64,000 bases of DNA, from assembly GCF_054482595.1 (NCBI RefSeq), contig NZ_CM137008.1; one strand, written 5' to 3'. Both the position numbers and the translations under genes were made by a program. The notes below the pieces were generated by a model, which worked only from the letters and a program-made list of their open reading frames with translations, ran no database searches and was not told the origin of the DNA. Shown here in pieces: positions 12,944 through 32,500 of the stretch. Every line of letters starts with the position of its first letter. Position 1 is the first letter of the stretch.

Positions 12944-13295
12944 AGTTACCTTCTGTAGATACGAATTGTTGTATCGCAGAAGATTCCATGTCGACAGCGG
13001 TACACTCAATTGGTTGGGCCATCATGTACGACAATGGTTCCTGTAAAGAGTGTAAAGACTAGTCAGGACATAACCACGAGGAGCATGAATGCGGTGGCTC
13101 TACTTTATCACTGGCTGACTGCTTTCAGCTACTGATTATTAATCGTGCAAAGTAAATATTTTTCCGTACATAACAGTCTTGCATTTAACATACTGTTTTC
13201 ATTGATGCTTAGCAAAAATTGCCAGAGGTTAAGGATTGTCTTACTATTAAAGTGACTGAAGTTACAGGTTTTTTAGCGCGGCAGGAGGTTGAGCT

Positions 13296-13538
13296 ATGAT
13301 TTATTTATGGATGTTTCTCGCCCTGTGTATTGTCTGCGTAAGCGGCTACATCGGTCAGGTACTGAACGTGGTATCGGCGGTCTCTTCTTTCTTCGGCATG
13401 GTGATCCTCGCTGCACTCATTTATTACTTCACCATGTGGTTAACAGGCGGTAATGAACTGGTGACGGGGATATTTATGTTTCTTGCCCCGGCTTGTGGCT
13501 TGATGATTCGCTTTATGGTGGGGTATGGCAGGCGGTAG
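13296..13538 (+). CDS. yfdY: Small inner-membrane protein
   Basis: 80 aa hydrophobic ORF in the K-12 yfdY position. Confidence 0.6.
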   Translation: MIYLWMFLALCIVCVSGYIGQVLNVVSAVSSFFGMVILAALIYYFTMWLTGGNELVTGIFMFLAPACGLMIRFMVGYGRR

Positions 13539-13614
13539 TGGGTCAGGATGGCTCATTTGGGCAGGTGTTCACATCAGCATCAGACATGATTGCTCACCTG
13601 CCATGTGACAGACG

Positions 13615-13890
13615 CTATCGCACAGGATGAATAAGATAACTCGCCTTTGTCGGATAAGTGGGCGTGGTTTCTTCTGTGAGGTTTAATGGTGGCGCATCTT
13701 CTCTCATCTTAAACAAAATCGCCTGTGATGGCTGAAATTTTGTAGAGTGAGTTGTCGTCATCGCTGACGTTTTTTCCGTCTCTTTATAGCTCGCCTCACT
13801 ACCACCACCAGAAATAGAAAATGCAAAAACATTGCATGCCATAATAGAGACCAATAAAAATAAGCTAAAAAGCATTAAGTTTACTTTCAT
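13615..13890 (-). CDS. ypdI: Putative lipoprotein
   Basis: 91 aa ORF with signal peptide and lipobox-like (SIMAC) motif; AT-rich; synteny. Confidence 0.55.
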   Translation of the reverse strand: MKVNLMLFSLFLLVSIMACNVFAFSISGGGSEASYKETEKTSAMTTTHSTKFQPSQAILFKMREDAPPLNLTEETTPTYPTKASYLIHPVR

Positions 13891-14042
13891 AGAAAGTTAT
13901 CCTGAAAATGGTTCACTGAAAACCTACGACGTTATGGCTGTATTTACATATAATTAATCAGTATTTACATCGATATAATAAATGACATCTCTTTGTGGTA
14001 TATAAGAATAGTTCTCTGTGACAGGAAGCAGATTCCTACAAC

Positions 14043-14060
14043 TGTAAGATTAAAATACTT
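14043..14060. promoter_or_regulatory. Candidate EvgA box upstream of yfdX
   Basis: TTCCTACA-AC-TGTAAGAT, a near-perfect match to the EvgA inverted-repeat consensus TTCYTACA-N2-TGTARGAA, about 125 bp upstream of the yfdX start. Confidence 0.55.
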
Positions 14061-14185
14061 CTTGCGATAATAACTACAAGTGTAAGATAACCCTTTCAAA
14101 ATGACCGTTGCTCTCTGATTTCTCATTTCATGCTCACCCAATATGATGGCGGCGTTTTCTAAAACTGTTAAAGAATGAGGTAAGT

Positions 14186-14818
14186 ATGAAACGTTTAATT
14201 ATGGCTACGATGGTCACAGCTATTCTGGCATCTTCAACTGTATGGGCTGCTGATAATGCACCGGTAGCGGCACAACAGCAAACTCAGCAAGTTCAGCAAA
14301 CCCAGAAAACGGCAGCAGCAGAGCGTATCTCTGAACAAGGTTTATATGCGATGCGTGACGTGCAGGTAGCGCGCCTGGCTCTGTTTCATGGCGATCCGGA
14401 AAAGGCAAAAGAACTGACCAATGAAGCTTCCGCTTTGTTGTCAGATGACAGTACCGAATGGGCAAAGTTCGCTAAGCCAGGTAAAAAGACCAATCTCAAT
14501 GATGACCAATATATTGTCATTAATGCATCTGTCGGAATTTCTGAGAGTTATGTAGCGACACCCGAAAAAGAAGCCGCGATAAAAATTGCCAATGAAAAAA
14601 TGGCGAAAGGGGATAAAAAGGGCGCAATGGAAGAGCTTCGCCTGGCCGGTGTTGGTGTAATGGAAAACCAATATCTGATGCCGCTTAAACAGACTCGTAA
14701 TGCACTTGCTGATGCGCAGAAACTGCTTGATAAAAAGCAATACTACGAGGCAAACCTGGCGCTTAAAGGTGCGGAAGATGGAATCATCGTCGATAGCGAA
14801 GCACTGTTTGTGAACTAA
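14186..14818 (+). CDS. yfdX: Periplasmic protein YfdX
   Basis: 210 aa ORF with signal peptide; recognised YfdX; synteny. Confidence 0.8.
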
Positions 14819-15061
14819 TGCTGACTGGCAGTATATTGAGGTAAAGGATTTAACTCCCTCCAGACGACAATTTTTTATGACCACAATACGACAGGTTGTG
14901 GTCATAAAATTATTTGGCGCTCGCTGTTCTATAAACTCGCATTTTATATTCCTCAAAGTAAACCGCAATAATCCCGTGTCATCACAAATCATTTAATATG
15001 TTATATTTTATGGTACGCTTTAAAAAGCGTAATCATACCCTTACTTGTAAATCACCGGCGC

Positions 15062-15079
15062 TTCTTACAGTTGTAAGAA
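15062..15079. promoter_or_regulatory. Candidate EvgA box upstream of frc-oxc-yfdV-yfdE
   Basis: TTCTTACA-GT-TGTAAGAA, an 18/18 match to the EvgA inverted-repeat consensus, about 250 bp upstream of frc. Confidence 0.6.
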
Positions 15080-15329
15080 TAACATCACAAATGTCGCGAC
15101 TCTCTCTGATTACCACGAACCAATATTTATCATATTCTTCTTTTCGTCCTCACTACTTACCATGCAGAAAGGAATTGGAAGTAGCGATGAAATGATTTTC
15201 AGCACTTGATACAGGAATGTAAAAATATCGAGTGCAGCTACGACGATATTTTGCGGATTATTTATAGAGGCGTTATGCCTTAAATAAACGCTAAATTAAC
15301 ACATATTTAATTAACTAATAGGTATTGCT

Positions 15330-16580
15330 ATGTCAACTCCACTTCAAGGAATTAAAGTTCTCGATTTCACCGGTGTGCAATCTGGCCCATCTTGTACTCA
15401 AATGCTGGCCTGGTTTGGCGCTGACGTTATTAAAATTGAACGTCCCGGCGTTGGTGACGTAACGCGTCACCAGCTGCGAGATATTCCTGATATCGATGCG
15501 CTTTACTTCACCATGCTTAACAGTAACAAACGTTCTATTGAGTTAAATACCAAAACAGCGGAAGGCAAAGAGGTAATGGAAAAGCTGATCCGCGAAGCTG
15601 ATATCTTAGTCGAGAACTTTCATCCAGGGGCCATTGATCACATGGGTTTCACCTGGGAGCATATTCAAGAAATCAATCCACGTCTGATTTTTGGTTCGAT
15701 CAAAGGGTTTGATGAGTGTTCGCCTTATGTGAATGTAAAAGCCTATGAAAACGTTGCTCAGGCAGCGGGTGGCGCGGCATCCACTACGGGTTTTTGGGAC
15801 GGTCCGCCGCTGGTAAGCGCTGCAGCGTTGGGTGACAGCAACACCGGAATGCATTTACTGATCGGTTTACTTGCTGCTTTGCTGCATCGCGAAAAAACGG
15901 GGCGTGGGCAACGAGTCACCATGTCAATGCAGGATGCCGTATTGAACCTTTGCCGCGTGAAATTACGCGACCAGCAGCGTCTCGATAAATTGGGTTATCT
16001 GGAAGAATACCCGCAGTATCCGAATGGCACATTTGGTGATGCAGTTCCCCGCGGAGGTAATGCGGGTGGTGGCGGTCAGCCTGGCTGGATCCTGAAATGT
16101 AAAGGTTGGGAAACCGATCCTAACGCCTATATTTATTTCACTATTCAGGAGCAAAACTGGGAAAACACCTGCAAAGCCATCGGCAAACCAGATTGGATTA
16201 CCGATCCGGCATACAGTACAGCCCATGCCCGACAGCCACATATTTTCGATATTTTTGCTGAAATCGAAAAATACACTGTCACTATTGATAAACATGAAGC
16301 GGTGGCCTATTTGACTCAATTTGATATTCCTTGTGCACCGGTTTTAAGTATGAAAGAAATTTCACTTGATCCCTCTTTGCGCCAAAGTGGCAGTGTTGTC
16401 GAAGTGGAACAACCGTTGCGTGGAAAATATCTGACAGTTGGTTGTCCAATGAAATTCTCTGCCTTTACGCCAGATATTAAAGCTGCGCCGCTATTAGGTG
16501 AACATACCGCTGCTGTATTGCAGGAGCTGGGTTATAGCGACGATGAAATTGCTGCAATGAAGCAAAACCACGCCATCTGA
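15330..16580 (+). CDS. frc: Formyl-CoA:oxalate CoA-transferase
   Basis: 416 aa ORF, CoA-transferase family III; recognised Frc (YfdW). Confidence 0.9.
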
Positions 16581-16633
16581 TATTAACGGGGGCTTCTGGC
16601 TCCCAATTTATAAAAATTTCGAGGTTATTAATC

Positions 16634-18328
16634 ATGTCAGATCAACTTCAAATGACAGATGGTATGCATATCATCGTTGAAGCATTAAAACAGAATAATA
16701 TTGACACTATTTATGGTGTTGTAGGTATTCCTGTGACGGATATGGCGCGCCATGCCCAGGCGGAAGGCATTCGTTATATTGGTTTTCGTCATGAGCAGTC
16801 GGCAGGCTATGCCGCTGCGGCAAGCGGTTTTCTTACCCAAAAACCAGGGATCTGCCTGACAGTGTCTGCGCCAGGATTCCTCAATGGTTTGACCGCATTG
16901 GCCAACGCAACGGTAAATGGTTTTCCGATGATCATGATTAGCGGCTCCAGCGACCGCGCGATCGTCGACCTACAGCAAGGTGATTATGAAGAGCTGGACC
17001 AAATGAATGCGGCAAAACCGTATGCCAAAGCAGCATTTCGCGTTAATCAGCCGCAGGATCTTGGCATTGCATTGGCACGCGCTATCCGGGTCTCAGTATC
17101 GGGTCGCCCTGGCGGAGTTTATCTTGATTTGCCAGCAAATGTCCTGGCCGCGACGATGGAAAAAGACGAAGCGTTAACCACGATTGTAAAAGTTGAAAAT
17201 CCGTCGCCAGCATTATTGCCATGCCCGAAGTCAGTCACTAGCGCAATTTCGCTTTTAGCAAAAGCTGAACGGCCATTAATTATCCTTGGCAAAGGCGCGG
17301 CGTATTCACAAGCTGACGAACAGCTTCGTGAATTTATTGAAAGTGCCCAGATTCCATTCCTGCCAATGTCTATGGCGAAAGGGATCCTCGAAGATACGCA
17401 TCCACTTTCTGCGGCAGCTGCGCGTTCGTTTGCCCTGGCAAATGCTGACGTTGTCATGCTTGTTGGTGCACGACTGAATTGGTTACTGGCACACGGTAAA
17501 AAAGGATGGGCGGCAGATACACAGTTTATTCAACTGGATATTGAACCGCAGGAAATTGACAGCAACCGCCCCATTGCTGTGCCAGTCGTTGGCGATATTG
17601 CATCCAGTATGCAAGGTATGCTGGCAGAACTGAAACAAAACACATTTACGACTCCACTGGTATGGCGCGATATTTTAAATATCCACAAGCAGCAAAATGC
17701 ACAAAAAATGCATGAAAAATTGAGTACAGATACCCAACCATTAAATTACTTTAATGCATTGAGTGCTGTGCGCGATGTATTGCGTGAGAACCAGGATATT
17801 TATTTAGTTAATGAAGGGGCAAATACCCTGGATAATGCACGAAATATTATTGATATGTATAAACCACGTCGTCGTCTGGATTGTGGCACCTGGGGTGTCA
17901 TGGGCATCGGTATGGGCTATGCCATCGGTGCTAGCGTGACTTCTGGTTCTCCGGTTGTCGCCATTGAAGGTGATAGTGCTTTTGGTTTCAGTGGGATGGA
18001 AATTGAAACGATTTGTCGATATAACCTGCCGGTGACAATCGTTATTTTTAATAATGGCGGCATCTACAGAGGAGACGGTGTTGATCTCAGTGGCGCTGGT
18101 GCACCATCACCAACGGATCTGTTGCACCATGCAAGGTATGACAAATTAATGGATGCGTTTCGTGGCGTTGGCTATAACGTCACCACGACAGATGAACTTC
18201 GTCATGCTTTAACCACCGGTATTCAGTCGCGCAAACCGACCATTATTAACGTGGTCATCGACCCTGCAGCAGGAACTGAAAGTGGCCATATTACCAAACT
18301 GAACCCAAAACAAGTCGCTGGTAATTAA
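16634..18328 (+). CDS. oxc: Oxalyl-CoA decarboxylase (ThDP-dependent)
   Basis: 564 aa ORF with thiamine-diphosphate binding motif (GDSAFGFSGMEIETI...NNGG). Confidence 0.9.
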   Translation: MSDQLQMTDGMHIIVEALKQNNIDTIYGVVGIPVTDMARHAQAEGIRYIGFRHEQSAGYAAAASGFLTQKPGICLTVSAPGFLNGLTALANATVNGFPMIMISGSSDRAIVDLQQGDYEELDQMNAAKPYAKAAFRVNQPQDLGIALARAIRVSVSGRPGGVYLDLPANVLAATMEKDEALTTIVKVENPSPALLPCPKSVTSAISLLAKAERPLIILGKGAAYSQADEQLREFIESAQIPFLPMSMAKGILEDTHPLSAAAARSFALANADVVMLVGARLNWLLAHGKKGWAADTQFIQLDIEPQEIDSNRPIAVPVVGDIASSMQGMLAELKQNTFTTPLVWRDILNIHKQQNAQKMHEKLSTDTQPLNYFNALSAVRDVLRENQDIYLVNEGANTLDNARNIIDMYKPRRRLDCGTWGVMGIGMGYAIGASVTSGSPVVAIEGDSAFGFSGMEIETICRYNLPVTIVIFNNGGIYRGDGVDLSGAGAPSPTDLLHHARYDKLMDAFRGVGYNVTTTDELRHALTTGIQSRKPTIINVVIDPAAGTESGHITKLNPKQVAGN

Positions 18329-18397
18329 ATACTGACATCGTCTCCTCTTGCCAACTCATTATGCGATGGTGAGGGGACCCTTATCGGAAATACTATT

Positions 18398-19342
18398 ATG
18401 CTAACATTTTTTATTGGCGATTTATTGCCTATTATCGTAATCATGCTGTTGGGTTATTTTAGCGGCAGACGAGAAACATTTTCAGAAGATCAAGCTCGGG
18501 CATTTAATAAACTGGTATTAAACTACGCGCTTCCTGCGGCTCTATTTGTATCTATTACCCGGGCAAACAGGGAAATGATTTTTGCGGACACTCGTCTGAC
18601 CCTTGTATCACTTGTGGTTATTGTCGGATGTTTCTTTTTCTCCTGGTTCGGTTGCTACAAATTTTTTAAACGTACTCATGCAGAAGCAGCTGTATGTGCA
18701 TTAATTGCAGGTTCACCTACTATTGGATTCCTGGGATTTGCAGTTCTCGATCCTATTTATGGTGATTCCGTATCAACAGGTTTAGTGGTAGCAATTATTT
18801 CTATTATTGTTAACGCAATTACTATTCCTATTGGTCTGTATTTGCTGAATCCTTCCTCAGGAGCGGATGGTAAGAAGAATAGTAATCTGAGCGCATTAAT
18901 TTCTGCGGCAAAGGAGCCTGTAGTATGGGCACCTGTTCTGGCAACGATCCTGGTGCTGGTTGGGGTAAAAATTCCGGCAGCATGGGACCCAACCTTTAAT
19001 CTGATTGCGAAGGCTAACTCAGGGGTAGCGGTATTCGCTGCGGGGTTGACTCTGGCTGCACATAAATTCGAGTTCAGTGCCGAAATTGCTTATAACACCT
19101 TCCTGAAGCTGATTCTGATGCCACTGGCGCTGCTTCTTGTTGGTATGGCATGTCATCTGAACAGCGAACATCTGCAGATGATGGTACTGGCAGGCGCATT
19201 ACCGCCGGCATTCTCCGGAATCATTATTGCCAGCCGGTTTAATGTCTACACCCGCACTGGTACAGCGTCATTGGCTGTGAGCGTACTGGGTTTTGTCGTC
19301 ACGGCTCCCTTGTGGATTTATGTCAGTCGACTGGTTTCATAA
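18398..19342 (+). CDS. yfdV: Putative transporter (AEC family)
   Basis: 314 aa polytopic membrane ORF; synteny with the oxalate module. Confidence 0.8.
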
Positions 19343-19415
19343 TTAATCATGTTATTGATTTTACATAAATGCCGAAGTGTCTTTTCACCTTCGGCTTTTT
19401 TCAAGGCATAAGCAA

Positions 19416-20561
19416 ATGACAAATAATGAAAGCAAAGGGCCGTTTGAAGGCTTATTAGTTATCGATATGACACATGTCCTTAATGGACCTTTCGGAACTC
19501 AACTTCTTTGTAATATGGGCGCAAGGGTAATTAAAGTTGAGCCACCAGGTCATGGTGATGATACCCGCACATTTGGTCCCTATGTGGATGGACAGTCACT
19601 CTATTACAGTTTTATTAATCATGGTAAAGAGAGTGTGGTTCTTGATTTAAAGAATGATCACGATAAAAGTATATTTATAAATATGCTTAAACAAGCTGAT
19701 GTATTAGCTGAGAATTTTCGCCCAGGTACAATGGAAAAACTGGGGTTTTCATGGGAAAGGTTACAAGAAATCAACCCGCGCCTCATATATGCTTCATCGT
19801 CAGGTTTCGGACATACCGGTCCGCTAAAAGATGCTCCTGCCTACGATACCATCATTCAGGCAATGAGCGGGATAATGATGGAAACAGGGTACCCTGATGC
19901 TCCGCCAGTGCGTGTTGGTACCTCTCTTGCGGATCTATGCGGCGGTGTTTATTTATTCAGCGGAATAGTGAGTGCACTTTATGGCCGCGAAAAGAGCCAA
20001 AGAGGGGCGCATGTCGATATAGCGATGTTTGATGCCACGCTGAGTTTTCTGGAGCATGGTCTGATGGCATATATTGCGACAGGGAAGTCACCACAACGCC
20101 TGGGAAATCGCCATCCCTACATGGCACCTTTTGATGTTTTCGATACTCAGGATAAGCCGATTACGATTTGTTGTGGTAATGACAAGCTTTTTTCTGCGTT
20201 ATGCCAGGCACTGGAGCTTACGGAACTGGTTAATGATCCCAGATTTAGCAGCAATATTTTACGCGTACAAAACCAGGCTATTCTTAAACAATATATTGAG
20301 CGGACGTTAAAAACGCAGGCAGCTGAAGTTTGGTTAGCCAAAATACATGAAGTCGGTGTGCCCGTCGCGCCGTTATTAAGTGTGGCTGAGGCCATTAATT
20401 TGCCACAAACTCAGGCGAGAAATATGTTGATTGAAGCCGGGGGAATAATGATGCCGGGTAATCCGATAAAAATCAGTGGCTGCGCGGACCCGCATGTTAT
20501 GCCGGGAGCGGCAACGCTCGACCAGCATGGGGAGCAAATTCGCCAGGAGTTCTCATCATAA
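19416..20561 (+). CDS. yfdE: Acetyl-CoA:oxalate CoA-transferase (CoA-transferase family III)
   Basis: ORF 19377..20561; paralogous to Frc; likely start at MTNNESKGPFEGL (19416). Confidence 0.8.
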   Translation: MTNNESKGPFEGLLVIDMTHVLNGPFGTQLLCNMGARVIKVEPPGHGDDTRTFGPYVDGQSLYYSFINHGKESVVLDLKNDHDKSIFINMLKQADVLAENFRPGTMEKLGFSWERLQEINPRLIYASSSGFGHTGPLKDAPAYDTIIQAMSGIMMETGYPDAPPVRVGTSLADLCGGVYLFSGIVSALYGREKSQRGAHVDIAMFDATLSFLEHGLMAYIATGKSPQRLGNRHPYMAPFDVFDTQDKPITICCGNDKLFSALCQALELTELVNDPRFSSNILRVQNQAILKQYIERTLKTQAAEVWLAKIHEVGVPVAPLLSVAEAINLPQTQARNMLIEAGGIMMPGNPIKISGCADPHVMPGAATLDQHGEQIRQEFSS

Positions 20562-20583
20562 ATGTAAGATGTGCTGGTAAATA

Positions 20584-20610
20584 GCTCCCACATTTGAACA
20601 TTGTGGGAGC
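20584..20610. terminator. Hairpin between convergent yfdE and evgS
   Basis: gctcccaca-tttgaaca-ttgtgggagc inverted repeat in the 55 bp convergent gap. Confidence 0.5.
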
Positions 20611-20616
20611 CGCTAT

Positions 20617-23600
20617 TTAGTCATTTTGCTGACAGAAAACAGCAATCTCCTGGTCCAGCTCTGCAATGTGTTCTTTTACAGAGTTCAGCAACTGAAGAAT
20701 TTCAGGCTTACTGTCATCTGAAACAGGTGTTATTTCTAACTGATGGCTAATATTAATCAACTTTTGCAAATTCAGGATGTTAGCCGCACCGTGGATGCGA
20801 TGAATACATTGATGGAAAGTTCTGTTATCGCCAGCTTCTAGTGCATGAAACGCAGCGGGTAGATCTTTATGCGTTTCATGCTGGAAAGTCATGAGAATCT
20901 CCTGCATCAGTTGTAGATCGTTCGCCGTATTATTTTTCAGGGCTTCGATATCAAGGTGGCGATACTGAGGTGCAATATGCGCAACCTGGTGTAACTGACT
21001 TAAATGTGTTTTCAGTACATCCAGGGTCAACGGTTTGAACAAACATAAGTTCATGCCGCAATTTAACCCTTTTTCACGTTCGTTAGCCTGTGCGTTGGCT
21101 GTAAGCCCCCAGATGGGTAAGGAAGAATTTTGCTCACGGAGTTTGCGAGTCAACTCAAAACCATCCATATTCGGCATATTAACGTCAGTAATAAGCAGAT
21201 CATAATGTTGCATACTGACTTTGTGTAGCGCTTGCACACCATCAGTGGCTTCATCAACATCATATCCTAATAGATTTAGCTGGCGTTTGAGTAATAGCCT
21301 GTTGGTCGGATGATCATCCGCGATTAATATGCTCAACTTTTCAGGTAGTGTGATGGGTTGTTCTGCTTTTGCCTCGACAGTCGCCACTTGTTGGATAATT
21401 TCTACCGGGATTGTGATCGTAAATGTTGTTCCTATGCCTGGATGACTTTCTAATGACAAATCACCCTGCATGTTTTTAATTAATTCTTTGCAGATCATTA
21501 AGCCTAAACCAGAACCTGTTTGCTGACGACCTGCACTTGTTTGGCTATAGCGTTTAAACAGTTGTTGTTGTTCTTCCTGCGATAATCCACTTCCAGAATC
21601 CATAATCGTCATTTTGATTACAGCGTGGTTGTCATCAATGTGAACCAGGGAGGTCGTAATTTTTACTGCCCCCTCGGTGGTAAATTTGAGAGCATTACTC
21701 AGTAAATTTGATAAGACCTGCTTAAACGCCTGAGGGTCGATCTTAACCAGGTAATGTTCAGGAAACGTACTGCTGCAACTTAATGCGATCGATTTGCTTG
21801 CAGCAATCGCACCGAAAGAGTGACAAGTGTTCTGGACTAAAGTAGGGATATCGACCCATTGTGGTTGAAGTTGATAGTTACCCGATTCAATTTTGTCGAC
21901 ATCAAGGATTTCACCAATTAAGCCGAGGAGTGATTGTCCGGTGGCGTAGGCAAGTGAAATCGCCTCCACCCGTTGCTCCTTGCTAAGACCAGAACCCGAC
22001 AGAAGTTCCAGGAAGCCCATAATGGAGCTTATTGGTGTTCTTATTTCGTGACTCATTGTTGCCAGAAACTGACTTTTTGCGACAGTTGCATTGATCGCTT
22101 TATTTCTCTCTACTTCGAGTGCATGAATTAAATCACGCGTCTCGGTAATATCTTGCCAACCACAAATATAAACAGCATGATCGCTGGCTGGCAGATTGCA
22201 TAATGTATGCCAGTGATTAATGCATCTTTTCTCGATGCCATTATCAATTTCAAATACCTGTGTGTATATTGTTCGATTTTCTTTCGTTTCTGCTGTGACT
22301 TCATGCGCATTAGAAAAAACATCTTTAAAGGGTGATTCACTGTTTTCTAATGGCAACATTGCATTTTTGTAGTAATCAGCAGTGAAATAATGTTCAAATG
22401 CACTATTGTGACTAATGACATTACCTTGCCAGTTTACAACATAAGTTGGATTCGGTAAGGAGTCCGAGAGCGCTTTCCGGAATGATATTTGGTTTTCTAA
22501 ATCACCCTGAATGACTTTACGACGACGAACTGAGCGTAACAGGTAGAATCCCCATAAAAGGCTACTGCCAACTAATAAAACGGATAATGTCGTAACAATA
22601 TAAAATTGCTCGCTATAGAGGTCCCATGTGTCAATGGTCACATTGGGCATTTTAATCCATTTTTCGGTCAGGCGCAGAACTTCGCTTGGGGGGATTGCAT
22701 TCAGTGCTTTATTAATAATATCCTTAAGTTCCGGTTCTCCGCGAGGAAAAGCGAACGAAAGCGATGCATTCGGAACGCCGGGAATAAGAAAATGATACAG
22801 TTCATTAGGATAGTAATGGTCGATCATGTAACGCGAATTTAACTGTGTCGCGACCAGAGCATCAAGTTCGCCTTCCTTGACCTTGTGAAATGCAGCGCTG
22901 GCGTTATCGACTTTTATCCACTCTACCTCCGGATACATCTCTTTTAATTGCGAATGAAGCTCATAATAATATGGAATGGCAACTTTCATTCCTTTTTTTA
23001 ATGTTTGTTCACTGTCAGGCGCTTTTTGCATGACAAAAACGTAAGGCGTTGTTATGAAGGCTTCAGCAAATAAAACATTATTTTCTCTATCTTCACTATA
23101 AATAGCACCGGGTAATATATCCCATCCGCCGGGATTCAGCTGTGTTCCAGCATGGATATTGTGTGAAACGGTGATCGGAGAAAAATTTAAACCTGTTTGC
23201 AAAGTAATAATATTAAGAATATCCCCCATAACGCCCCGAACCGAGCCATTTTCATCCGTCATAGAATAGGGAGGGGAGTAAGGATTTTCCAGCACCTTTA
23301 AATCGGGATGCTGCTTAATCCATTGTTTTTCATGTTCAGTGAGTTCTAATGGTTTGTTCAGAAAGGCCAGGTTTCCTGTATCAAGCCAATTTTGTGATAC
23401 TTCATAGCGAACTTCATTTGTCAAAGCATCAACAAATCGATTGAGTACTTCATTAAGAACGACAGATTCTTTTCTGGTCAAGAAAAAATTATATTGACGC
23501 GGTGAGTTATAATATTTCACTACATTTAAGGAGTGAGTGAAATAGCGGGAAATCATACTGCTGGTAATGATGTTACTACCAATAAAGTAATCATTCTGTC

Positions 23601-24210
23601 CGGCTGAGACGGATGCTAATGCCTGATATAAATTTGTAAAAGAGATAATTGTTGCTTTTGGAAATGATTGATGAATTACCTCGTCAGGGGGATAATTTGC
23701 TACTCGAGCAATATTTACTGGTTTTGATGAGGTAAGCGGTCGCATTGAATCGTGAAGGGTGGTGACCAGCGCCGGAAAGGTAATTATCAGTGGTTTGGTT
23801 GCAGCAATGTCATCATTAAGAGGCGGCGAAGCAACTAAATGTGATAACACTATATCGACTTCACCTTCTTCCAGCGCGTCCATTGCTTTTTGATGATCGG
23901 CGTATTCCCGGAGTGTTAATTTGATATTTAACGCTCTTTTTAAAAGATTTAAATAATCAGCATTAATACCACGCACCCGTTGCTGCGAATCGGTATGCAA
24001 CAACGTAGCCGTTTGGGACTTGTGTACTGCAATCACAAGATTTTTTTTGCTCGCTAACCAACGTAATTCCTTGTTGCTCAGACGTAGTGGATCAAGTGTG
24101 ACACGGTTGTTACTACTGATGCCACGATATTCGATGTAATCTTCGTCTGCGAAACTTATGGTCGACCAAAGACCACAACAGAGAAGAAAAATATAGGGTA
24201 AAAACTTCAT
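20617..24210 (-). CDS. evgS: Hybrid sensor histidine kinase EvgS (periplasmic domains, HisKA/HATPase, receiver, HPt)
   Basis: 1197 aa ORF; H-box (SHEIRTPI), receiver (LIADDHPTNR) and C-terminal HPt region; recognised EvgS. Confidence 0.9.
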   Translation of the reverse strand: MKFLPYIFLLCCGLWSTISFADEDYIEYRGISSNNRVTLDPLRLSNKELRWLASKKNLVIAVHKSQTATLLHTDSQQRVRGINADYLNLLKRALNIKLTLREYADHQKAMDALEEGEVDIVLSHLVASPPLNDDIAATKPLIITFPALVTTLHDSMRPLTSSKPVNIARVANYPPDEVIHQSFPKATIISFTNLYQALASVSAGQNDYFIGSNIITSSMISRYFTHSLNVVKYYNSPRQYNFFLTRKESVVLNEVLNRFVDALTNEVRYEVSQNWLDTGNLAFLNKPLELTEHEKQWIKQHPDLKVLENPYSPPYSMTDENGSVRGVMGDILNIITLQTGLNFSPITVSHNIHAGTQLNPGGWDILPGAIYSEDRENNVLFAEAFITTPYVFVMQKAPDSEQTLKKGMKVAIPYYYELHSQLKEMYPEVEWIKVDNASAAFHKVKEGELDALVATQLNSRYMIDHYYPNELYHFLIPGVPNASLSFAFPRGEPELKDIINKALNAIPPSEVLRLTEKWIKMPNVTIDTWDLYSEQFYIVTTLSVLLVGSSLLWGFYLLRSVRRRKVIQGDLENQISFRKALSDSLPNPTYVVNWQGNVISHNSAFEHYFTADYYKNAMLPLENSESPFKDVFSNAHEVTAETKENRTIYTQVFEIDNGIEKRCINHWHTLCNLPASDHAVYICGWQDITETRDLIHALEVERNKAINATVAKSQFLATMSHEIRTPISSIMGFLELLSGSGLSKEQRVEAISLAYATGQSLLGLIGEILDVDKIESGNYQLQPQWVDIPTLVQNTCHSFGAIAASKSIALSCSSTFPEHYLVKIDPQAFKQVLSNLLSNALKFTTEGAVKITTSLVHIDDNHAVIKMTIMDSGSGLSQEEQQQLFKRYSQTSAGRQQTGSGLGLMICKELIKNMQGDLSLESHPGIGTTFTITIPVEIIQQVATVEAKAEQPITLPEKLSILIADDHPTNRLLLKRQLNLLGYDVDEATDGVQALHKVSMQHYDLLITDVNMPNMDGFELTRKLREQNSSLPIWGLTANAQANEREKGLNCGMNLCLFKPLTLDVLKTHLSQLHQVAHIAPQYRHLDIEALKNNTANDLQLMQEILMTFQHETHKDLPAAFHALEAGDNRTFHQCIHRIHGAANILNLQKLINISHQLEITPVSDDSKPEILQLLNSVKEHIAELDQEIAVFCQQND

Positions 24211-24214
24211 GTGG

Positions 24215-24829
24215 TTAGCCGATTTTGTTACGTTGTGCGAATGTGTAAAGATCCATCAGTGATTTACATTCTAATTTTTCCATCAGGCGACTTTTATAAG
24301 TGCTGACAGTTTTGTTGCTGATGAACATTTTTTCAGCAATGTCATTATTATCCTTGCCATCAAGAATATAGCGCATGACACTAATTTCTTGTTTCGATAA
24401 GGAGTCGAGTTTTTGCTGGTCGGACGTTAAACTTCCAACAAACCGGTTGAGAGAGAAGGGGAAATAGCAGTAGCCATTTTTTGCAGCTTCAATAGCCGCA
24501 ATGATATTGTTCATGCCTTCTTTTTTACTCACGAAACCATTAGCGCCAGCATCAGCACAATGTTTCCCGTAAAAATGGTCATTTTTAGCGGAGACGATAA
24601 TAATAATTCCGCTATATTGGCGCTTCCTCAGCGTTTCTAACACCTGGATACCGTTAACTCCGGGGATATCGACATCAATGATGACGATATCAGGCTTAAG
24701 TGTTTCCACCCGCTGAACGGCACTTCCGCCTTCAGTCAACTCTGCTAAGATTTCAATATCGTTTTTGATCAATAAATTACGAATTGCTGCGATAGCAAGA
24801 GGATGGTCATCAATAATTATTGCGTTCAT
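24215..24829 (-). CDS. evgA: Response regulator EvgA (LuxR/FixJ family)
   Basis: 204 aa ORF; receiver domain plus C-terminal LuxR-type HTH; directly upstream of evgS. Confidence 0.9.
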   Translation of the reverse strand: MNAIIIDDHPLAIAAIRNLLIKNDIEILAELTEGGSAVQRVETLKPDIVIIDVDIPGVNGIQVLETLRKRQYSGIIIIVSAKNDHFYGKHCADAGANGFVSKKEGMNNIIAAIEAAKNGYCYFPFSLNRFVGSLTSDQQKLDSLSKQEISVMRYILDGKDNNDIAEKMFISNKTVSTYKSRLMEKLECKSLMDLYTFAQRNKIG

Positions 24830-25053
24830 AGATTATTCCCTTTGCAATGAAGCATCTCCCTTCTCCCTGTAGTAATACAGACATAAGGCATCATCTCATT
24901 TTCTCAATAAAAATAAGAAAATTTGAGCTTCCTTTAAGATAATTCGACAAGTATACCATATAAATAGTCGGCATATATGAAATGTCAACAATAAAATCAG
25001 GGATTGTACCGATGATTTATAGTTTCACATTAGCACTATAAGTCTTCTCACTA

Positions 25054-25071
25054 ATCCTACAGGCGTAAGAA
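25054..25071. promoter_or_regulatory. Candidate EvgA box in the evgA-emrK divergent region
   Basis: ATCCTACA-GG-CGTAAGAA, 16/18 match to TTCYTACA-N2-TGTARGAA, between divergent evgA and emrK. Confidence 0.5.
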
Positions 25072-25244
25072 TTGTATTGCAAAAGCCACGGTTTAGTCCT
25101 CTGTTGTTTTTTTTGCACCTCATTTAAATTAGGCCTCCAACGTTCCTGGGATAATGTGCAACACATGCACTGTGTTTGATATGAAGAATGAATACTCTTT
25201 TCATTCAATTCATAAATTTCATCTATGCGAAATGAGAGATAAAA

Positions 25245-26408
25245 GTGGAACAGATTAATTCAAATAAAAAACATTCTAACAGAAGAAAATACTTTTCTTT
25301 ATTGGCGGTAGTTTTATTTATTGCGTTTTCAGGTGCCTATGCCTATTGGTCAATGGAATTAGAAGACATGATTAGTACAGATGACGCCTATGTCACGGGG
25401 AATGCAGATCCAATTTCTGCACAAGTCTCAGGTAGTGTCACTGTCGTTAATCATAAAGATACGAACTACGTTCGACAAGGTGACATTTTAGTTTCACTGG
25501 ATAAAACTGATGCCACTATCGCACTCAATAAAGCTAAAAATAATCTGGCAAATATTGTTCGGCAAACGAATAAACTGTACTTACAGGATAAACAATACAG
25601 TGCCGAAGTCGCTTCAGCACGTATTCAGTATCAACAATCTTTAGAAGATTATAACCGTCGTGTGCCTTTAGCGAAGCAGGGGGTTATTTCAAAAGAAACG
25701 CTGGAGCATACCAAAGATACGTTAATAAGTAGCAAAGCGGCATTGAATGCCGCTATCCAGGCTTATAAAGCGAATAAAGCTTTAGTAATGAACACACCAT
25801 TAAACCGTCAGCCACAAGTCGTGGAAGCGGCGGATGCAACCAAAGAAGCCTGGTTGGCGCTTAAACGTACGGATATTAAGAGTCCGGTTACCGGCTATAT
25901 TGCCCAGAGAAGTGTTCAGGTCGGCGAAACAGTGAGCCCCGGACAATCGTTAATGGCTGTCGTACCGGCACGTCAAATGTGGGTTAATGCCAACTTTAAA
26001 GAAACACAACTCACGGATGTACGGATTGGTCAATCGGTCAATATTATCAGCGATCTTTATGGTGAAAATGTTGTGTTTCATGGTCGGGTGACAGGGATCA
26101 ATATGGGAACCGGCAATGCGTTCTCCTTATTACCTGCACAAAATGCGACAGGGAACTGGATCAAAATCGTTCAGCGTGTACCGGTTGAAGTTTCTCTTGA
26201 TCCAAAAGAACTCATGGAACACCCCTTGCGCATTGGTTTATCGATGACTGCAACTATTGATACGAAGGACGAAGACATTGCTGAGATGCCTGATCTGGCT
26301 TCAACCGTGACCTCCATGCCTGCTTATACCAGTAAGGCTTTAGTTATCGATACCAGTCCGATAGAAAAAGAAATTAGCAACATTATTTCGCATAATGGAC
26401 AACTTTAA
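25245..26408 (+). CDS. emrK: Multidrug efflux membrane fusion protein (EmrA paralogue)
   Basis: 387 aa ORF, HlyD-family; exact start uncertain (several in-frame Met); overlaps emrY start (TAATG). Confidence 0.85.
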   Translation: MEQINSNKKHSNRRKYFSLLAVVLFIAFSGAYAYWSMELEDMISTDDAYVTGNADPISAQVSGSVTVVNHKDTNYVRQGDILVSLDKTDATIALNKAKNNLANIVRQTNKLYLQDKQYSAEVASARIQYQQSLEDYNRRVPLAKQGVISKETLEHTKDTLISSKAALNAAIQAYKANKALVMNTPLNRQPQVVEAADATKEAWLALKRTDIKSPVTGYIAQRSVQVGETVSPGQSLMAVVPARQMWVNANFKETQLTDVRIGQSVNIISDLYGENVVFHGRVTGINMGTGNAFSLLPAQNATGNWIKIVQRVPVEVSLDPKELMEHPLRIGLSMTATIDTKDEDIAEMPDLASTVTSMPAYTSKALVIDTSPIEKEISNIISHNGQL

Positions 26409-27946
26409 TGGCAATCACTAAATCAACTCCGGCACCATTAACCGGTGGGACGTTATGGTGCGTCACTATTGCATTGTCATTAGCGACGTTTATGCAAATG
26501 TTGGATTCCACTATTTCTAACGTCGCAATACCGACAATATCTGGCTTTCTGGGAGCGTCAACAGACGAAGGCACCTGGGTTATCACCTCGTTTGGCGTAG
26601 CAAATGCCATTGCGATCCCTGTTACCGGCAGGCTGGCACAAAGAATAGGCGAATTAAGGTTATTTTTACTTTCAGTCACTTTTTTTTCGCTGTCTTCCTT
26701 AATGTGTAGTTTATCGACCAATCTTGATGTTCTGATATTTTTTAGAGTCGTTCAGGGGTTAATGGCGGGGCCGTTAATTCCACTGTCACAGAGTTTATTA
26801 TTAAGGAATTATCCACCAGAAAAAAGGACATTTGCTCTGGCATTATGGTCAATGACCGTGATTATCGCTCCGATATGTGGGCCGATATTGGGCGGCTATA
26901 TTTGTGATAACTTTAGCTGGGGTTGGATATTTTTAATCAATGTCCCTATGGGGATTATCGTCCTGACATTATGCTTAACCTTACTTAAAGGAAGAGAAAC
27001 TGAGACTTCACCGGTCAAAATGAATCTACCAGGACTGACCCTGTTAGTGCTCGGTGTTGGTGGCTTGCAAATTATGCTTGATAAAGGGCGCGATCTGGAT
27101 TGGTTCAACTCGAGTACAATAATAATATTAACAGTAGTATCAGTTATTTCTCTGATCTCTTTAGTTATTTGGGAGTCGACCTCAGAGAACCCGATTCTTG
27201 ATCTCAGTTTGTTTAAGTCCCGTAATTTCACCATTGGTATAGTGAGTATCACATGCGCGTATTTATTTTACTCTGGAGCGATCGTCCTTATGCCGCAGTT
27301 ACTCCAGGAAACGATGGGGTATAATGCGATATGGGCCGGACTTGCTTATGCGCCCATCGGCATCATGCCACTATTAATTTCACCTTTGATAGGACGTTAT
27401 GGCAACAAAATAGACATGCGGTTGTTAGTGACATTTAGTTTTTTGATGTATGCGGTTTGCTATTACTGGCGTTCTGTGACATTTATGCCAACGATTGATT
27501 TTACAGGCATCATTTTGCCACAGTTTTTCCAGGGATTCGCCGTTGCCTGTTTCTTTTTACCCTTAACAACGATTTCGTTTTCAGGGTTGCCAGATAATAA
27601 ATTTGCCAATGCCTCGAGTATGAGTAATTTTTTTCGTACCTTGTCAGGATCAGTTGGTACGTCGTTGACAATGACGCTGTGGGGACGACGCGAATCGTTA
27701 CACCATAGTCAGTTGACAGCAACCATCGATCAATTTAACCCCGTGTTTAATTCATCGTCACAAATTATGGATAAATACTATGGTTCGCTTTCAGGAGTTC
27801 TTAATGAAATTAATAATGAAATAACCCAGCAGTCACTTTCTATTTCTGCAAATGAGATTTTCCGTATGGCGGCTATTGCTTTTATCTTACTTACGGTTTT
27901 GGTGTGGTTTGCGAAACCGCCGTTTACAGCGAAAGGCGTTGGGTGA
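26408..27946 (+). CDS. emrY: MFS multidrug efflux pump (EmrB paralogue)
   Basis: 512 aa ORF with the multi-helix layout expected of a 14-TMS MFS exporter; recognised EmrY. Confidence 0.9.
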   Translation: MAITKSTPAPLTGGTLWCVTIALSLATFMQMLDSTISNVAIPTISGFLGASTDEGTWVITSFGVANAIAIPVTGRLAQRIGELRLFLLSVTFFSLSSLMCSLSTNLDVLIFFRVVQGLMAGPLIPLSQSLLLRNYPPEKRTFALALWSMTVIIAPICGPILGGYICDNFSWGWIFLINVPMGIIVLTLCLTLLKGRETETSPVKMNLPGLTLLVLGVGGLQIMLDKGRDLDWFNSSTIIILTVVSVISLISLVIWESTSENPILDLSLFKSRNFTIGIVSITCAYLFYSGAIVLMPQLLQETMGYNAIWAGLAYAPIGIMPLLISPLIGRYGNKIDMRLLVTFSFLMYAVCYYWRSVTFMPTIDFTGIILPQFFQGFAVACFFLPLTTISFSGLPDNKFANASSMSNFFRTLSGSVGTSLTMTLWGRRESLHHSQLTATIDQFNPVFNSSSQIMDKYYGSLSGVLNEINNEITQQSLSISANEIFRMAAIAFILLTVLVWFAKPPFTAKGVG

Positions 27947-29399: not shown

Positions 29400-29630
29400 T
29401 TAGATGATAAATGACAGCAGGAATGTGCCCGCCAGAGCGACGACTGAAGCGATAAATGTCGCTGTCGTATAGTATTTAAATGTTTCATTGAGCGTAGCGC
29501 CGCAATATTGCTTCACCAGCCAGAAAAGCGAGTCCGTAACGATCGTGCAGCCAATTGCGCCTGAACCGATAGCAATCGCAATAATTTCCGGGCTGATGTC
29601 GGGATACAGCGGCAGCACAATGATCCATAT
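29400..29630 (-). pseudogene. dsdX: 3' remnant of dsdX (D-serine permease, GntP family)
   Basis: Only about 72 C-terminal codons (…[27 protein letters not shown]) remain; in-frame stop immediately upstream of 29630; the rest of dsdX and all of dsdC are absent. Confidence 0.7.
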
Positions 29631-29848
29631 TTATATTTTCTTCTCCAGGTTGGCGATGCCAGTTGGCATGTTTTTCTTACTTGCCTATATGGTTACTCGT
29701 TGGCGAGAACAGAGGCGGAATTGGGGACAATTGGCCGGGAATTATTGTTATTTTTTATTGTATTGCCGTGTCAGGTGATAGGGCGTTGGATCTCGCCAGT
29801 GACGTCTGTTTCTGCTACAGTGCCCGTTTTACGACAAACGGCTTGGGT

Positions 29849-30844
29849 ATGGCTTCATTAAAGGATGTCGCACGCCTGGCGGGAGTGTCGATGATGACAG
29901 TCTCCCGGGTGATGCATAATGCAGAATCTGTGCGTCCTGCAACGCGTGACCGCGTATTGCAGGCAATCCAGACCCTGAATTATGTTCCTGATCTTTCCGC
30001 CCGTAAGATGCGCGCTCAAGGACGTAAGCCGTCGACTCTCGCCGTGCTGGCGCAGGACACTGCTACCACTCCTTTCTCTGTTGATATTCTGCTTGCCATT
30101 GAGCAAACCGCCAGCGAGTTCGGCTGGAATAGTTTTTTAATCAATATTTTTTCTGAAGATGACGCTGCCCGCGCGGCACGTCAGCTGCTTGCTCACCGTC
30201 CGGATGGCATTATCTATACTACAATGGGGCTGCGACATATCACGCTGCCTGAGTCTCTGTATGGTGAAAATATTGTATTGGCGAACTGTGTGGCGGATGA
30301 CCCAGCGTTACCCAGTTATATCCCTGATGATTACACTGCACAATATGAATCAACACAGCATTTGCTCGCGGCGGGCTATCGTCAACCGTTATGCTTCTGG
30401 CTACCGGAAAGTGCGTTGGCAACAGGGTATCGTCGGCAGGGATTTGAGCAGGCCTGGCGTGATGCTGGACGAGATCTGGCTGAGGTGAAACAATTTCACA
30501 TGGCAACAGGTGATGATCACTACACCGATCTCGCAAGTTTACTCAATGACCACTTCAAATCGGGCAAACCAGATTTTGATGTTCTGATATGTGGTAACGA
30601 TCGCGCAGCCTTTGTGGCTTATCAGGTTCTCCTGGCGAAGGGGGTACGTATCCCGCAGGATGTCGCCGTAATGGGCTTTGATAATCTGGTTGGCGTCGGG
30701 CATCTGTTTTTACCGCCGCTGACCACAATTCAGCTTCCACATGACATTATCGGGCGGGAAGCTGCATTGCATATTATTGAAGGTCGTGAAGGGGGAAGTG
30801 TGACGCGGATCCCTTGCCCGCTGTTGATCCGTTGTTCCACCTGA
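29849..30844 (+). CDS. cscR: Sucrose operon repressor (LacI/GalR family)
   Basis: ORF 29663..30844; N-terminal HTH begins at MASLKDVARLAGVSMMTVSRV (29849), giving 331 aa. Confidence 0.85.
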   Translation: MASLKDVARLAGVSMMTVSRVMHNAESVRPATRDRVLQAIQTLNYVPDLSARKMRAQGRKPSTLAVLAQDTATTPFSVDILLAIEQTASEFGWNSFLINIFSEDDAARAARQLLAHRPDGIIYTTMGLRHITLPESLYGENIVLANCVADDPALPSYIPDDYTAQYESTQHLLAAGYRQPLCFWLPESALATGYRRQGFEQAWRDAGRDLAEVKQFHMATGDDHYTDLASLLNDHFKSGKPDFDVLICGNDRAAFVAYQVLLAKGVRIPQDVAVMGFDNLVGVGHLFLPPLTTIQLPHDIIGREAALHIIEGREGGSVTRIPCPLLIRCST

Positions 30845-30851
30845 TATTATG

Positions 30852-32285
30852 CTAACCCAGTTGCCAGAGTGCTCCATGTTGCACCACAGCCACTCCGTGG
30901 GAGGCATAAAGCGACAGTTCCCGTTCTTCTGGCTGCGGATAGATTCGACTACTCATCACCGCTTCCCCGTCGTTAATAAATACTTCCACGGATGATGTAT
31001 CGATAAATATCCTTAGGGCGAGCGTCTCACCCTGCGGGAGGAGAATACTACGGTAGCCGTCTAAATTCTCGTGTGGGTAATACCGCCACAAAACAAGTCG
31101 CTCAGATTGGTTATCAATATACAGCCGCATTCCAGTGCCGAGCTGTAATCCGTAATGTTCGGCATCACTGTTCTTCAGCGCCCACTGCAACTGAATCTCA
31201 ACTGCTTGCGCGTTTTCCTGCAAAACATATTTATTGCTGATTGTGCGGGGAGAGATAGATTGATGCTGCTGGCGTAACGACTCAGCTTCGTGTACCGGGC
31301 GTTGTAGGAGTTTGCCATTGCTCTCTGATAGCTCACGCGCCAGCGTCATGCAGCCTGCCCAGCCTTCACGTTTTGAGGGCATTGGCGATTCCCACATATC
31401 CATCCAGCCGATAACAATACGCCGACCATCCTTCGCTAAAAAGCTTTGTGGTGCATAAAAGTCATGCCCGTTATCAAGTTCAGTAAAATGCCCGGATTGT
31501 GCAAAAAGTCGTCCTGGCGACCACATTCCGGGTATTACGCCACTTTGAAAGCGATTTCGATAACTGTATCCCTCGGCATTCATTCCCTGCGGGGAAAACA
31601 TCAGATAATGCTGATCGCCAAGGCTGAAAAAGTCCGGACATTCCCACATATAGCTTTCACCCGCATCAGCGTGGGCCAGTACGCGATCGAAAGTCCATTC
31701 ACGTAATGAACTGCCGCGATAAAGCAGGATCTGCCCCGTGTTGCCTGGGTCTTTCGCCCCGACTACCATCCACCATGAGTCGGCTTCACGCCACACTTTA
31801 GGATCGCGGAAGTGCATGATTCCTTCTGGTGGAGTGAGGATCACACCCTGTTTCTCGAAATGAATACCATCCCGACTGGTAGCCAGACATTGTACTTCGC
31901 GAATTGCATCGTCATTACCTGCACCATCGAGCCAGACGTGTCCGGTGTAGATAAGTGAGAGGACACCATTGTCATCGACAGCACTACCTGAAAAACACCC
32001 GTCTTTGTCATTCTCGTCTCCTGGCGCTAGCGCAATAGGCTCATGCTGCCAGTGGATCATATCGTCGCTGGTAGCATGTCCCCAGTGCATTGGCCCCCAG
32101 TGTTCGCTCATCGGGTGATGTTGATAAAACGCGTGATAACGATCGTTAAACCAGATCAGGCCGTTTGGATCGTTCATCCACCCGGCAGGAGGCGCGAGGT
32201 GAAAATGGGGATAGAAAGTGTTACCCCGGTGCTCATGAAGTTTTGCTAGTGCGTTTTGCGCTGCATGCAATCGAGATTGCGTCAT
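30852..32285 (-). CDS. cscA: Sucrose-6-phosphate hydrolase / invertase (GH32)
   Basis: GH32 motifs (WMNDPNG, FRDPKV, WECPD); ORF extends to 32294, start taken at MTQSRLHAAQ. Confidence 0.85.
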   Translation of the reverse strand: MTQSRLHAAQNALAKLHEHRGNTFYPHFHLAPPAGWMNDPNGLIWFNDRYHAFYQHHPMSEHWGPMHWGHATSDDMIHWQHEPIALAPGDENDKDGCFSGSAVDDNGVLSLIYTGHVWLDGAGNDDAIREVQCLATSRDGIHFEKQGVILTPPEGIMHFRDPKVWREADSWWMVVGAKDPGNTGQILLYRGSSLREWTFDRVLAHADAGESYMWECPDFFSLGDQHYLMFSPQGMNAEGYSYRNRFQSGVIPGMWSPGRLFAQSGHFTELDNGHDFYAPQSFLAKDGRRIVIGWMDMWESPMPSKREGWAGCMTLARELSESNGKLLQRPVHEAESLRQQHQSISPRTISNKYVLQENAQAVEIQLQWALKNSDAEHYGLQLGTGMRLYIDNQSERLVLWRYYPHENLDGYRSILLPQGETLALRIFIDTSSVEVFINDGEAVMSSRIYPQPEERELSLYASHGVAVVQHGALWQLG

Positions 32286-32319
32286 TTTAATCATCCTGGT
32301 TAAGCAAATTTGGTGAATT

Positions 32320-32331
32320 GTTAACGTTAAC
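32320..32331. promoter_or_regulatory. Candidate CscR operator (perfect palindrome GTTAACGTTAAC), copy 1
   Basis: 12 bp perfect palindrome in the cscA/cscK divergent promoter; identical copy 64 bp downstream. Confidence 0.5.
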
Positions 32332-32364
32332 TTTTATAAAAATAAAGTCCCTTACTTTCATAAA

Positions 32365-32380
32365 TGCGATGAATATCACA
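32365..32380. promoter_or_regulatory. CRP-like site in the csc divergent promoter
   Basis: TGCGA-tgaata-TCACA resembles the TGTGA-N6-TCACA consensus with one mismatch. Confidence 0.35.
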
Positions 32381-32383
32381 AAT

Positions 32384-32395
32384 GTTAACGTTAAC
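32384..32395. promoter_or_regulatory. Candidate CscR operator (perfect palindrome GTTAACGTTAAC), copy 2
   Basis: Identical 12 bp palindrome; central CG as in many LacI-family operators. Confidence 0.5.
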
Positions 32396-32500
32396 TATGA
32401 CATTTTGTGATCGAATATGCATGTTTTAGTAAATCCATGACGATTTTGCGAAAAAGAGGTTTATCACTATGCGTAAGTCAGATGAATTTAAGGGAAAAAA

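Follow-up and report, generated by a model that had tools for sequence, protein, structure and literature searches.

Candidate EvgA operator boxes at the Escherichia coli yfdX-frc-evgSA-emrKY locus and their putative promoter layout

Results and Discussion

Genes of the locus

The window analyzed here, a stretch of 64,000 nucleotides of contig NZ_CM137008.1 (assembly GCF_054482595.1), is an ordinary Escherichia coli chromosome segment with the gene order ypdI / yfdX / frc-oxc-yfdV-yfdE / evgSA / emrKY; the gene identities and order assigned in an earlier sequence-only reading of the same DNA (yfdX, frc-oxc-yfdV-yfdE, evgS-evgA on the opposite strand, and emrKY) hold. The minus strand carries evgS (20617..24210), which encodes the sensor kinase, and evgA (24215..24829), which encodes its cognate NarL/FixJ-type response regulator of 204 aa. 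The amino-acid sequence of the latter is that of K-12 EvgA and matches the PDB EvgA chains 5f64, 8zwn and 3f6c. A terminator-like hairpin lies 3' of yfdX on the plus strand (14873..14909), between yfdX and the frc promoter; it was confirmed in a generic sigma-70 and terminator scan and fits the separate induction of yfdX and yfdWUVE described in PMC3720670. An Rfam search over positions 13000-26000 found no RNA family, which leaves the long frc and emrK leaders without a described RNA element.

EvgA boxes, their significance and their conservation

The window was scored with an 18-bp inverted-repeat consensus for the EvgA box, TTCYTACA-NN-TGTARGAA, with an 8-2-8 architecture and 16 specified positions. 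At two or fewer mismatches three matches are found against 0.03 expected, and none of 100 dinucleotide-preserving shuffles reached three. The box upstream of frc (yfdW), TTCTTACAGTTGTAAGAA at 15062..15079 on the plus strand, is a perfect palindrome with no mismatches, its center 259.5 nt before the frc ATG (15330). A second box, TTCCTACAACTGTAAGAT with one mismatch, occupies 14033..14050 in the ypdI-yfdX spacer and is referred to below as the distal box, and the emrK box, ATCCTACAGGCGTAAGAA with two mismatches, is found at 25054..25071 on the plus strand of the divergent evgA-emrK spacer, its center 182.5 nt before the emrK GTG (25245). When three mismatches are allowed, the count in the 64 kb rises to four against 0.59 expected, the extra site being a degenerate EvgA-like box (TAACTACAAGTGTAAGAT, 14071..14088, plus strand, three mismatches) that is proximal to yfdX within the ypdI-yfdX spacer and lies 38 bp from the distal box, center to center. 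On the gene map all four boxes are intergenic and adjoin EvgA-regulon genes. The three repeats quoted in the sequence-only reading are thus all present, and those at frc and emrK had been placed correctly, but the second had been put at 14043-14060, 10 nt away from its actual position, an offset that also displaces the start coordinate of the finding as a whole. A hairpin reading of the repeats was rejected because a stable loop is impossible with a 2-nt spacer.

Comparison of seven E. coli genomes shows purifying selection on the half-sites and not on the box spacer: 2 of the 64 specified half-site positions are variable, as against 4 of the 8 positions in the 2-bp box spacers, in intergenic regions where about 20% (ypdI-yfdX and yfdX-frc) or about 6% (evgA-emrK) of the columns vary. 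At the individual boxes, none of the 16 specified positions varies in the frc box, where changes are confined to the spacer, and one of 16 varies in the distal box; the proximal box is conserved apart from spacer changes, and the emrK box is identical across six E. coli genomes. Relative to K-12, the frc and emrK boxes are exact copies and the distal box differs at one spacer base and at its last base.

Beyond E. coli, the frc box is found at the matching position in Yersinia vastinensis and in Erwinia sp. ErVv1. The Y. vastinensis locus carries yfdX-frc-oxc-yfdV-yfdE-evgS at 80-96% amino-acid identity over the yfdX-to-evgS side that the comparison covers (the locus breaks off inside evgS), which shows that the whole block from yfdX to evgS has moved, together with its boxes, into a species of Yersinia. 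The frc loci of Providencia, Moellerella and Klebsiella sp. lack the EvgA box, and neither EvgS nor EvgA has a match in the stretches fetched around these loci; a single contig scan, made with a degenerate pattern for the frc N terminus, yielded just one record from Escherichia. Short AT-rich palindromes are frequent in promoter regions, and the matches might on that account be taken for chance palindromes of AT-rich intergenic DNA, yet this reading is refuted by the shuffles and the observed excess over expectation, by half-site conservation that leaves almost all box variation in the spacer, by retention of the box at one position across genera, and by the presence of the motif at three unlinked regulon promoters in K-12 (see below), and we regard it as extremely improbable.

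EvgA and other candidate regulators

Binding by EvgA has been reported for each of the three promoters named in the sequence-only reading. According to PMC3720670, citing Masuda & Church 2003, EvgA binds inverted repeats that precede yfdX and yfdWUVE, and the emrKY promoter is bound directly according to the passages of PMC8350985 and PMC5706723 that cite Kato et al. 2000. As far as these secondary citations go, the boxes before yfdX, frc and emrK are already known, having been published in 2000-2003, and those described here are the same as the K-12 EvgAS regulon box (18-bp inverted repeat; Masuda & Church 2003) in organism, genes, regulator and sequences, with no essential difference. A full-text search with the motif strings found nothing relevant. 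The assignment of the repeats as EvgA sites before yfdX, frc and emrK is supported by these reports, and we consider it very likely that they are operator sites for phosphorylated EvgA, itself encoded between them, with both binding and activation as given in the literature cited above.

According to PMC4283999, every known direct target has an EvgA site, and the text and supplement of that study give log2 inductions of 8.37 for frc, 6.97 for yfdX and 5.03 for emrK in an evgS-constitutive mutant, with the overall order frc > yegR > yfdX > emrK. The suggestion that the strongest site precedes the oxalate-catabolism genes fits these array data, as the sole perfect palindrome is that of frc, which is also induced most strongly. 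PyfdX and PemrK fusions already serve as EvgA reporters and EvgA sites are ordinary and known, so that the boxes carry little weight as a discovery; what is added here is a corrected box coordinate and independent sequence evidence of selection on the sites, to which we would join, as inferred additions, the fourth, degenerate box and a shared layout of six EvgA promoters.

Recognition of the repeats by another LuxR/NarL-family regulator of acid or envelope stress, for example RcsB or GadE, would be in keeping with the presence of RcsB among the PDB relatives of EvgA, with RcsB control of yfdX in Klebsiella pneumoniae (PMC6394985), and with the occurrence of the box hexamers TTCCTA and TAAGAA as words of the BvgA primary site TAAGAAATTTCCTA (PMC7250471). 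The order and spacing of these hexamers are however opposite in the two sites, converging and 6 bp apart in the 18-bp EvgA box (TTCYTA-CANNTG-TARGAA) and diverging and 2 bp apart in the 14-bp BvgA site (TAAGAA-AT-TTCCTA). The motif also tracks EvgA targets in K-12 and the presence of evgS in Y. vastinensis, and direct EvgA binding is reported in the sources above, all of which makes a regulator other than EvgA very improbable.

In K-12, the box recurs upstream of three EvgA targets that are not linked to this locus, safA, ydeP and yegR, with one, two and one mismatches, respectively. The wiring of the "compact, locally wired" module is not only local, as these unlinked promoters share the box. 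Upstream of K-12 gadE no box is found even at four or fewer mismatches; gadE is a reported direct EvgA target, and the consensus thus misses some EvgA sites.

A putative box-anchored promoter layout

When six EvgA promoters are aligned on the box, three elements recur downstream: a CA dinucleotide (positions 27-28), TCYTnT, which resembles a half-site (44-49), and, near 71-76, a hexamer of -10 type. The aligned block at 44-51 scores 84/120 and five downstream columns are invariant, with neither value reached in any of 3000 rotations. A generic sigma-70 scan returned promoter-like sites in numbers no greater than in shuffles and did not place the EvgA promoters. On the plus strand, the predicted frc core promoter (15088..15136) comprises C27A28 at 15088-15089, CTCTGATT at 15104-15111 and a -10-like CATATT at 15131-15136, a block that is conserved in Y. 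vastinensis. The corresponding yfdX prediction (14097..14147, plus strand) places C27A28 at 14097-14098, CTCTGATT at 14113-14120, a -35-like TTCTCA at 14120-14125 and a -10-like TATGAT at 14142-14147, and is near-invariant in the seven E. coli genomes, where up to 14133 only 14106, 14107 and 14112 vary. For emrK (25080..25129, plus strand), C27A28 would lie at 25080-25081, GTCCTCTG at 25096-25103 and a -10-like TTAAAT at 25124-25129, with a single variable position (25087) in an otherwise conserved stretch. The emrK box was also considered as a driver of evgA through the same geometry and dropped, as 0/5 canonical downstream positions are matched toward evgA; the arrangement thus gives no support for autoregulation through shared geometry.

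The same layout bears on the division of labor in the ypdI-yfdX spacer, where the main role of the distal box, previously credited to yfdX, may be at the promoter of the divergent gene ypdI. Toward ypdI, on the minus strand, this box is followed by putative elements at 13975..14024 in the canonical arrangement, with C27 at 14024, TTCTTAT at 14008-14002 (positions 43-49) and a -10-like TATTAT at 13980-13975 (positions 71-76), and the arrangement is conserved in seven genomes. Toward yfdX, the distal box fits two of the five invariant positions and the proximal box all five. Expression of ypdI is raised by log2 2.75 in the evgS-constitutive mutant (PMC4283999) and 5.5-fold under glutathione, together with yfdX, yegR and ydeO. 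Pulling the other way, ypdI is induced far less than yfdX despite its better-matching box, the box left to yfdX has three mismatches, PMC3720670 credits the inverted repeat to yfdX, and a palindrome is able to act in both directions. We accordingly rate it as a real possibility, if somewhat short of an even chance, that the distal box acts mainly on ypdI and the proximal box on yfdX, the distal one possibly helping.

More doubtful still, and in our estimate rather unlikely, is the full combination in which a fixed layout goes together with a pair of EvgA promoters placed back to back, the better box serving ypdI and the degenerate one yfdX; the layout details that would then be previously unremarked are the palindrome, a CA after 20 bp, a third half-site after 42 bp abutting the -35, and, about 62 bp past the box center, a -10. 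If true, this geometry, with ypdI under direct EvgA control, would make it easier to predict weak EvgA sites that escape a simple consensus.

Proposed mechanism and comparison with NarL and BvgA

In the mechanism that we favor, an EvgA dimer would bind the 8-2-8 inverted repeat and, once bound, would activate a weak downstream sigma-70 promoter, with mild acid sensed by EvgS switching on yfdX, frc-oxc-yfdV-yfdE and emrKY. The predicted core promoters would put transcription starts near 14154 (yfdX), 15143 (frc) and 25136 (emrK) on the plus strand and near 13968 (ypdI) on the minus strand, with the box center some 73 bp upstream. In the intervening DNA, phased conserved elements would follow the first half-site, the CA after 20 bp and the TCYTnT half-site, which abuts the -35 region, after 42 bp.

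The sites of NarL dimers are heptamers in inverted orientation with 2 bp between them (7-2-7) and the half-site TACYYMT. NarL and EvgA sites are alike in this x-2-x geometry but differ in half-site sequence, and the NarL regulon is that of nitrate/nitrite respiration. Among solved structures, NarL is the closest non-EvgA relative of EvgA (PDB 1a04, E 5.5e-23).

A second point of reference is BvgAS, which is set beside EvgAS in PMC5706723. In the fha promoter of Bordetella, the most upstream site is an inverted repeat of high affinity, from which further BvgA protomers follow in phase, along a single face of the helix, as far as the -35, forming three head-to-head dimers 22 bp apart, the last of which abuts the -35 (PMC7250471). 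The EvgA promoters may resemble Pfha in their conserved elements 20 and 42 bp past the first half-site, the second abutting the predicted -35, and this likeness suggests that the phased elements could be contacted by further EvgA protomers or by RNA polymerase along the same DNA face, as for BvgA at fha.

EvgA boxes around evgAS

Scanning the window for the 8-2-8 inverted repeat TTCYTACANNTGTARGAA returned three matches with at most two mismatches, against 0.03 expected from shuffles, and none of 100 shuffles reached three. These are a perfect box upstream of frc (15062-15079), a box with one mismatch in the ypdI-yfdX spacer (14033-14050, hereafter the distal box) and a box with two mismatches in the evgA-emrK spacer (25054-25071, the emrK box). 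The sequence-only reading had proposed three such repeats, upstream of yfdX, frc and emrK; the latter two lie where it placed them, whereas the first, given as 14043-14060, is displaced by a 10-nt slip, its quoted sequence being correct. Raising the limit to three mismatches added a single site, the degenerate EvgA-like proximal box TAACTACAAGTGTAAGAT (14071-14088), likewise between ypdI and yfdX, 38 bp centre-to-centre from the distal box. In the local map built from ORFs and RefSeq annotation, ypdI (13615-13890, -) is followed by yfdX (14186-14818, +), frc (15330-16580, +) with oxc, yfdV and yfdE downstream on the same strand, evgS (20617-24210, -), evgA (24215-24829, -), emrK (25245-26408, +) and emrY (26408-27946, +). 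The encoded EvgA is identical in amino-acid sequence to that of K-12 and is a NarL/FixJ-type response regulator with structures of its own (5f64, 8zwn, 3f6c), the nearest other solved protein in the PDB comparison being NarL (1a04).

To test the identity of the motif independently of the consensus used in the sequence-only reading, we turned to three unlinked K-12 regions carrying EvgA-induced genes, and found it upstream of safA (TGCCTACAGCTGTAAGAA), ydeP (AGCCTACACCTGTAAGAA) and yegR (TTCCTACTTATGTAGGAA). The upstream region of gadE, reported as a direct EvgA target, has no match in K-12 at up to four mismatches. A further match within the mdtE coding sequence of K-12 (TTCTTACGCATGAAAGAA, L005 7887-7904, two mismatches) is not followed by the canonical elements and is probably a chance match. 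Across seven E. coli genomes (the window, K-12, O157, NU14, AVS0717, 1403KP and the divergent record SCPM-O-B-8794), variation touches only 2 of the 64 specified box positions, each of them non-consensus or outermost, against 4 of 8 positions in the box spacers. Of the intergenic columns, about 20% vary between ypdI and yfdX and between yfdX and frc, and about 6% between evgA and emrK.

According to PMC3720670, which cites Masuda & Church 2003, the inverted repeats in front of yfdX and of yfdWUVE are bound by EvgA. Passages of PMC8350985 and PMC5706723 citing Kato et al. 2000 describe the emrKY promoter as bound and directly regulated by EvgA; the same papers report direct activation of PyfdX by EvgA~P and the use of both promoters as reporters. 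All known direct EvgA targets have an EvgA site, and in evgS-constitutive mutants induction is highest for frc (log2 8.37), followed by yegR (7.75), yfdX (6.97), oxc (6.59), ydeO (5.55), emrK (5.03), emrY (3.64) and ypdI (2.75) (PMC4283999 and its supplement); EvgA ChIP data are mentioned in PMC10833566. The proposal that the repeats are EvgA boxes at regulon genes is borne out: the three sites are real and were correctly interpreted, but, with EvgA sites or binding at these promoters already published, neither the sites nor this reading of them is new.

A possible shared layout downstream of the box

In the established reading, an EvgA dimer on the inverted repeat activates a weak sigma-70 promoter. 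We aligned six promoters on their boxes, counting from the first base of the box toward the gene: yfdX (via the proximal box), frc, emrK, safA, ydeP and yegR. The most conserved block outside the box spans positions 44-51, and five downstream columns are invariant (C27, A28, T44, C45 and T49). The CA dinucleotide at 27-28 lies 20 bp past the CA of the first half-site, a (G/T)TCYTAT element resembling a third half-site lies 42 bp past the first, and a -10-like hexamer is found at 70-77 in all six promoters. In 3000 random rotations, neither the block score nor the invariant-column count was ever reached, and leaving out yfdX did not change this result. Should the -10 assignment be correct, the centre of the box would fall near -73 and the half-site-like element at about -40 to -33; we infer this layout, and its positions relative to the start, from the alignment. 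It would resemble the arrangement at Pfha, to which BvgA binds as three head-to-head dimers 22 bp apart, the upstream one with high affinity and the last abutting -35 (PMC7250471). The outer hexamers of the distal box (TTCCTA ... TAAGAA) also make up the BvgA primary site TAAGAA-AT-TTCCTA (PMC7250471), where they stand in reverse order and around a 2-bp rather than a 6-bp centre.

Orientation of the boxes in the ypdI-yfdX spacer

In the opposite orientation, the boxes match between 0 and 3 of the five invariant positions; the single exception is the distal box toward ypdI (-), where C27 is followed by TTCTTAT at 43-49 and TATTAT at 71-76. These elements are conserved in 7/7 E. coli genomes. 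Toward yfdX the distal box has 2/5 invariant positions versus 5/5 for the degenerate proximal box, which is conserved except in its spacer and lies in canonical register with the yfdX promoter. Together with the co-induction of ypdI and the EvgA regulon in transcriptomes of evgS-constitutive mutants and under glutathione, this raises the possibility of two back-to-back EvgA promoters in the spacer, the box previously assigned to yfdX serving ypdI, a tentative arrangement to which we give somewhat less than even chances. EvgA may act on ypdI directly. Toward evgA, the emrK box has 0/5 invariant positions, which lends no support to autoregulation through the same geometry.

The module in other genera

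A single search of species-representative genomes for a degenerate frc N-terminal pattern yielded 17 loci. Yersinia vastinensis IP38594 (L022 1-10800) carries yfdX-frc-oxc-yfdV-yfdE-evgS at 80-96% amino-acid identity to E. coli, the locus ending inside evgS, next to ORFs that by eye we take to resemble arsB and arsC. It has TTCTTACACGCGTAAGAA upstream of frc at the same position as in E. coli, with the 40 bp 3' of the box almost unchanged versus diverged surrounding DNA, and its frc promoter matches 5/5 invariant positions. The cluster in this setting suggests horizontal transfer of the yfdX-to-evgS module with its EvgA boxes, and its presence as one block fits a transferable module. This, together with four boxes within 11 kb around evgAS, agrees in part with the compact, locally wired module proposed earlier, but the regulon also reaches safA-ydeO, ydeP and yegR at other chromosomal sites. 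Erwinia sp. ErVv1 carries the palindrome ATCCTACAGATGTAGGAT (L021 7396-7413) about 230 nt upstream of frc-oxc, its promoter matching 4/5 invariant positions; the 7.6 kb upstream contain no EvgA or EvgS match and, judged by eye, presumably a primase-like ORF and a transposase fragment. In Providencia, Moellerella and Klebsiella sp., the frc loci lack a box, and the stretches fetched gave no EvgS or EvgA match.

Strain-specific features of the region

Strain XH990 matches this E. coli chromosome segment with 100% identity over 13800-15400, and nearly all of 5,419 complete E. coli genomes do so with 95-99%. Aligning the window to XH990 at a fixed offset fails in both stretches tried, so the match to that strain does not hold across the whole window; emrK, annotated as frameshifted in that otherwise near-identical strain, is here an intact 387-codon ORF with two amino-acid differences from K-12. 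The nine-codon leader ORF evgL (MLHCKGNNL; 24826-24855, -; b4781 in the K-12 annotation) overlaps the evgA start codon. In E. coli O157 Al Ain, yfdE (L023 5891-7032) is annotated as frameshifted. Within 29400-35250 lies a truncated dsdX, whose annotation is that of an incomplete fragment with the N-terminus missing. Unlike strains with intact dsdX, the window has no dsdC annotated here; in place of dsdC stands a sucrose-utilisation block with a LacI-family regulator, cscA, a kinase and an MFS transporter, which ends near tRNA-Arg(CCT) at 35176-35250, and O157 Al Ain shows a similar arrangement.
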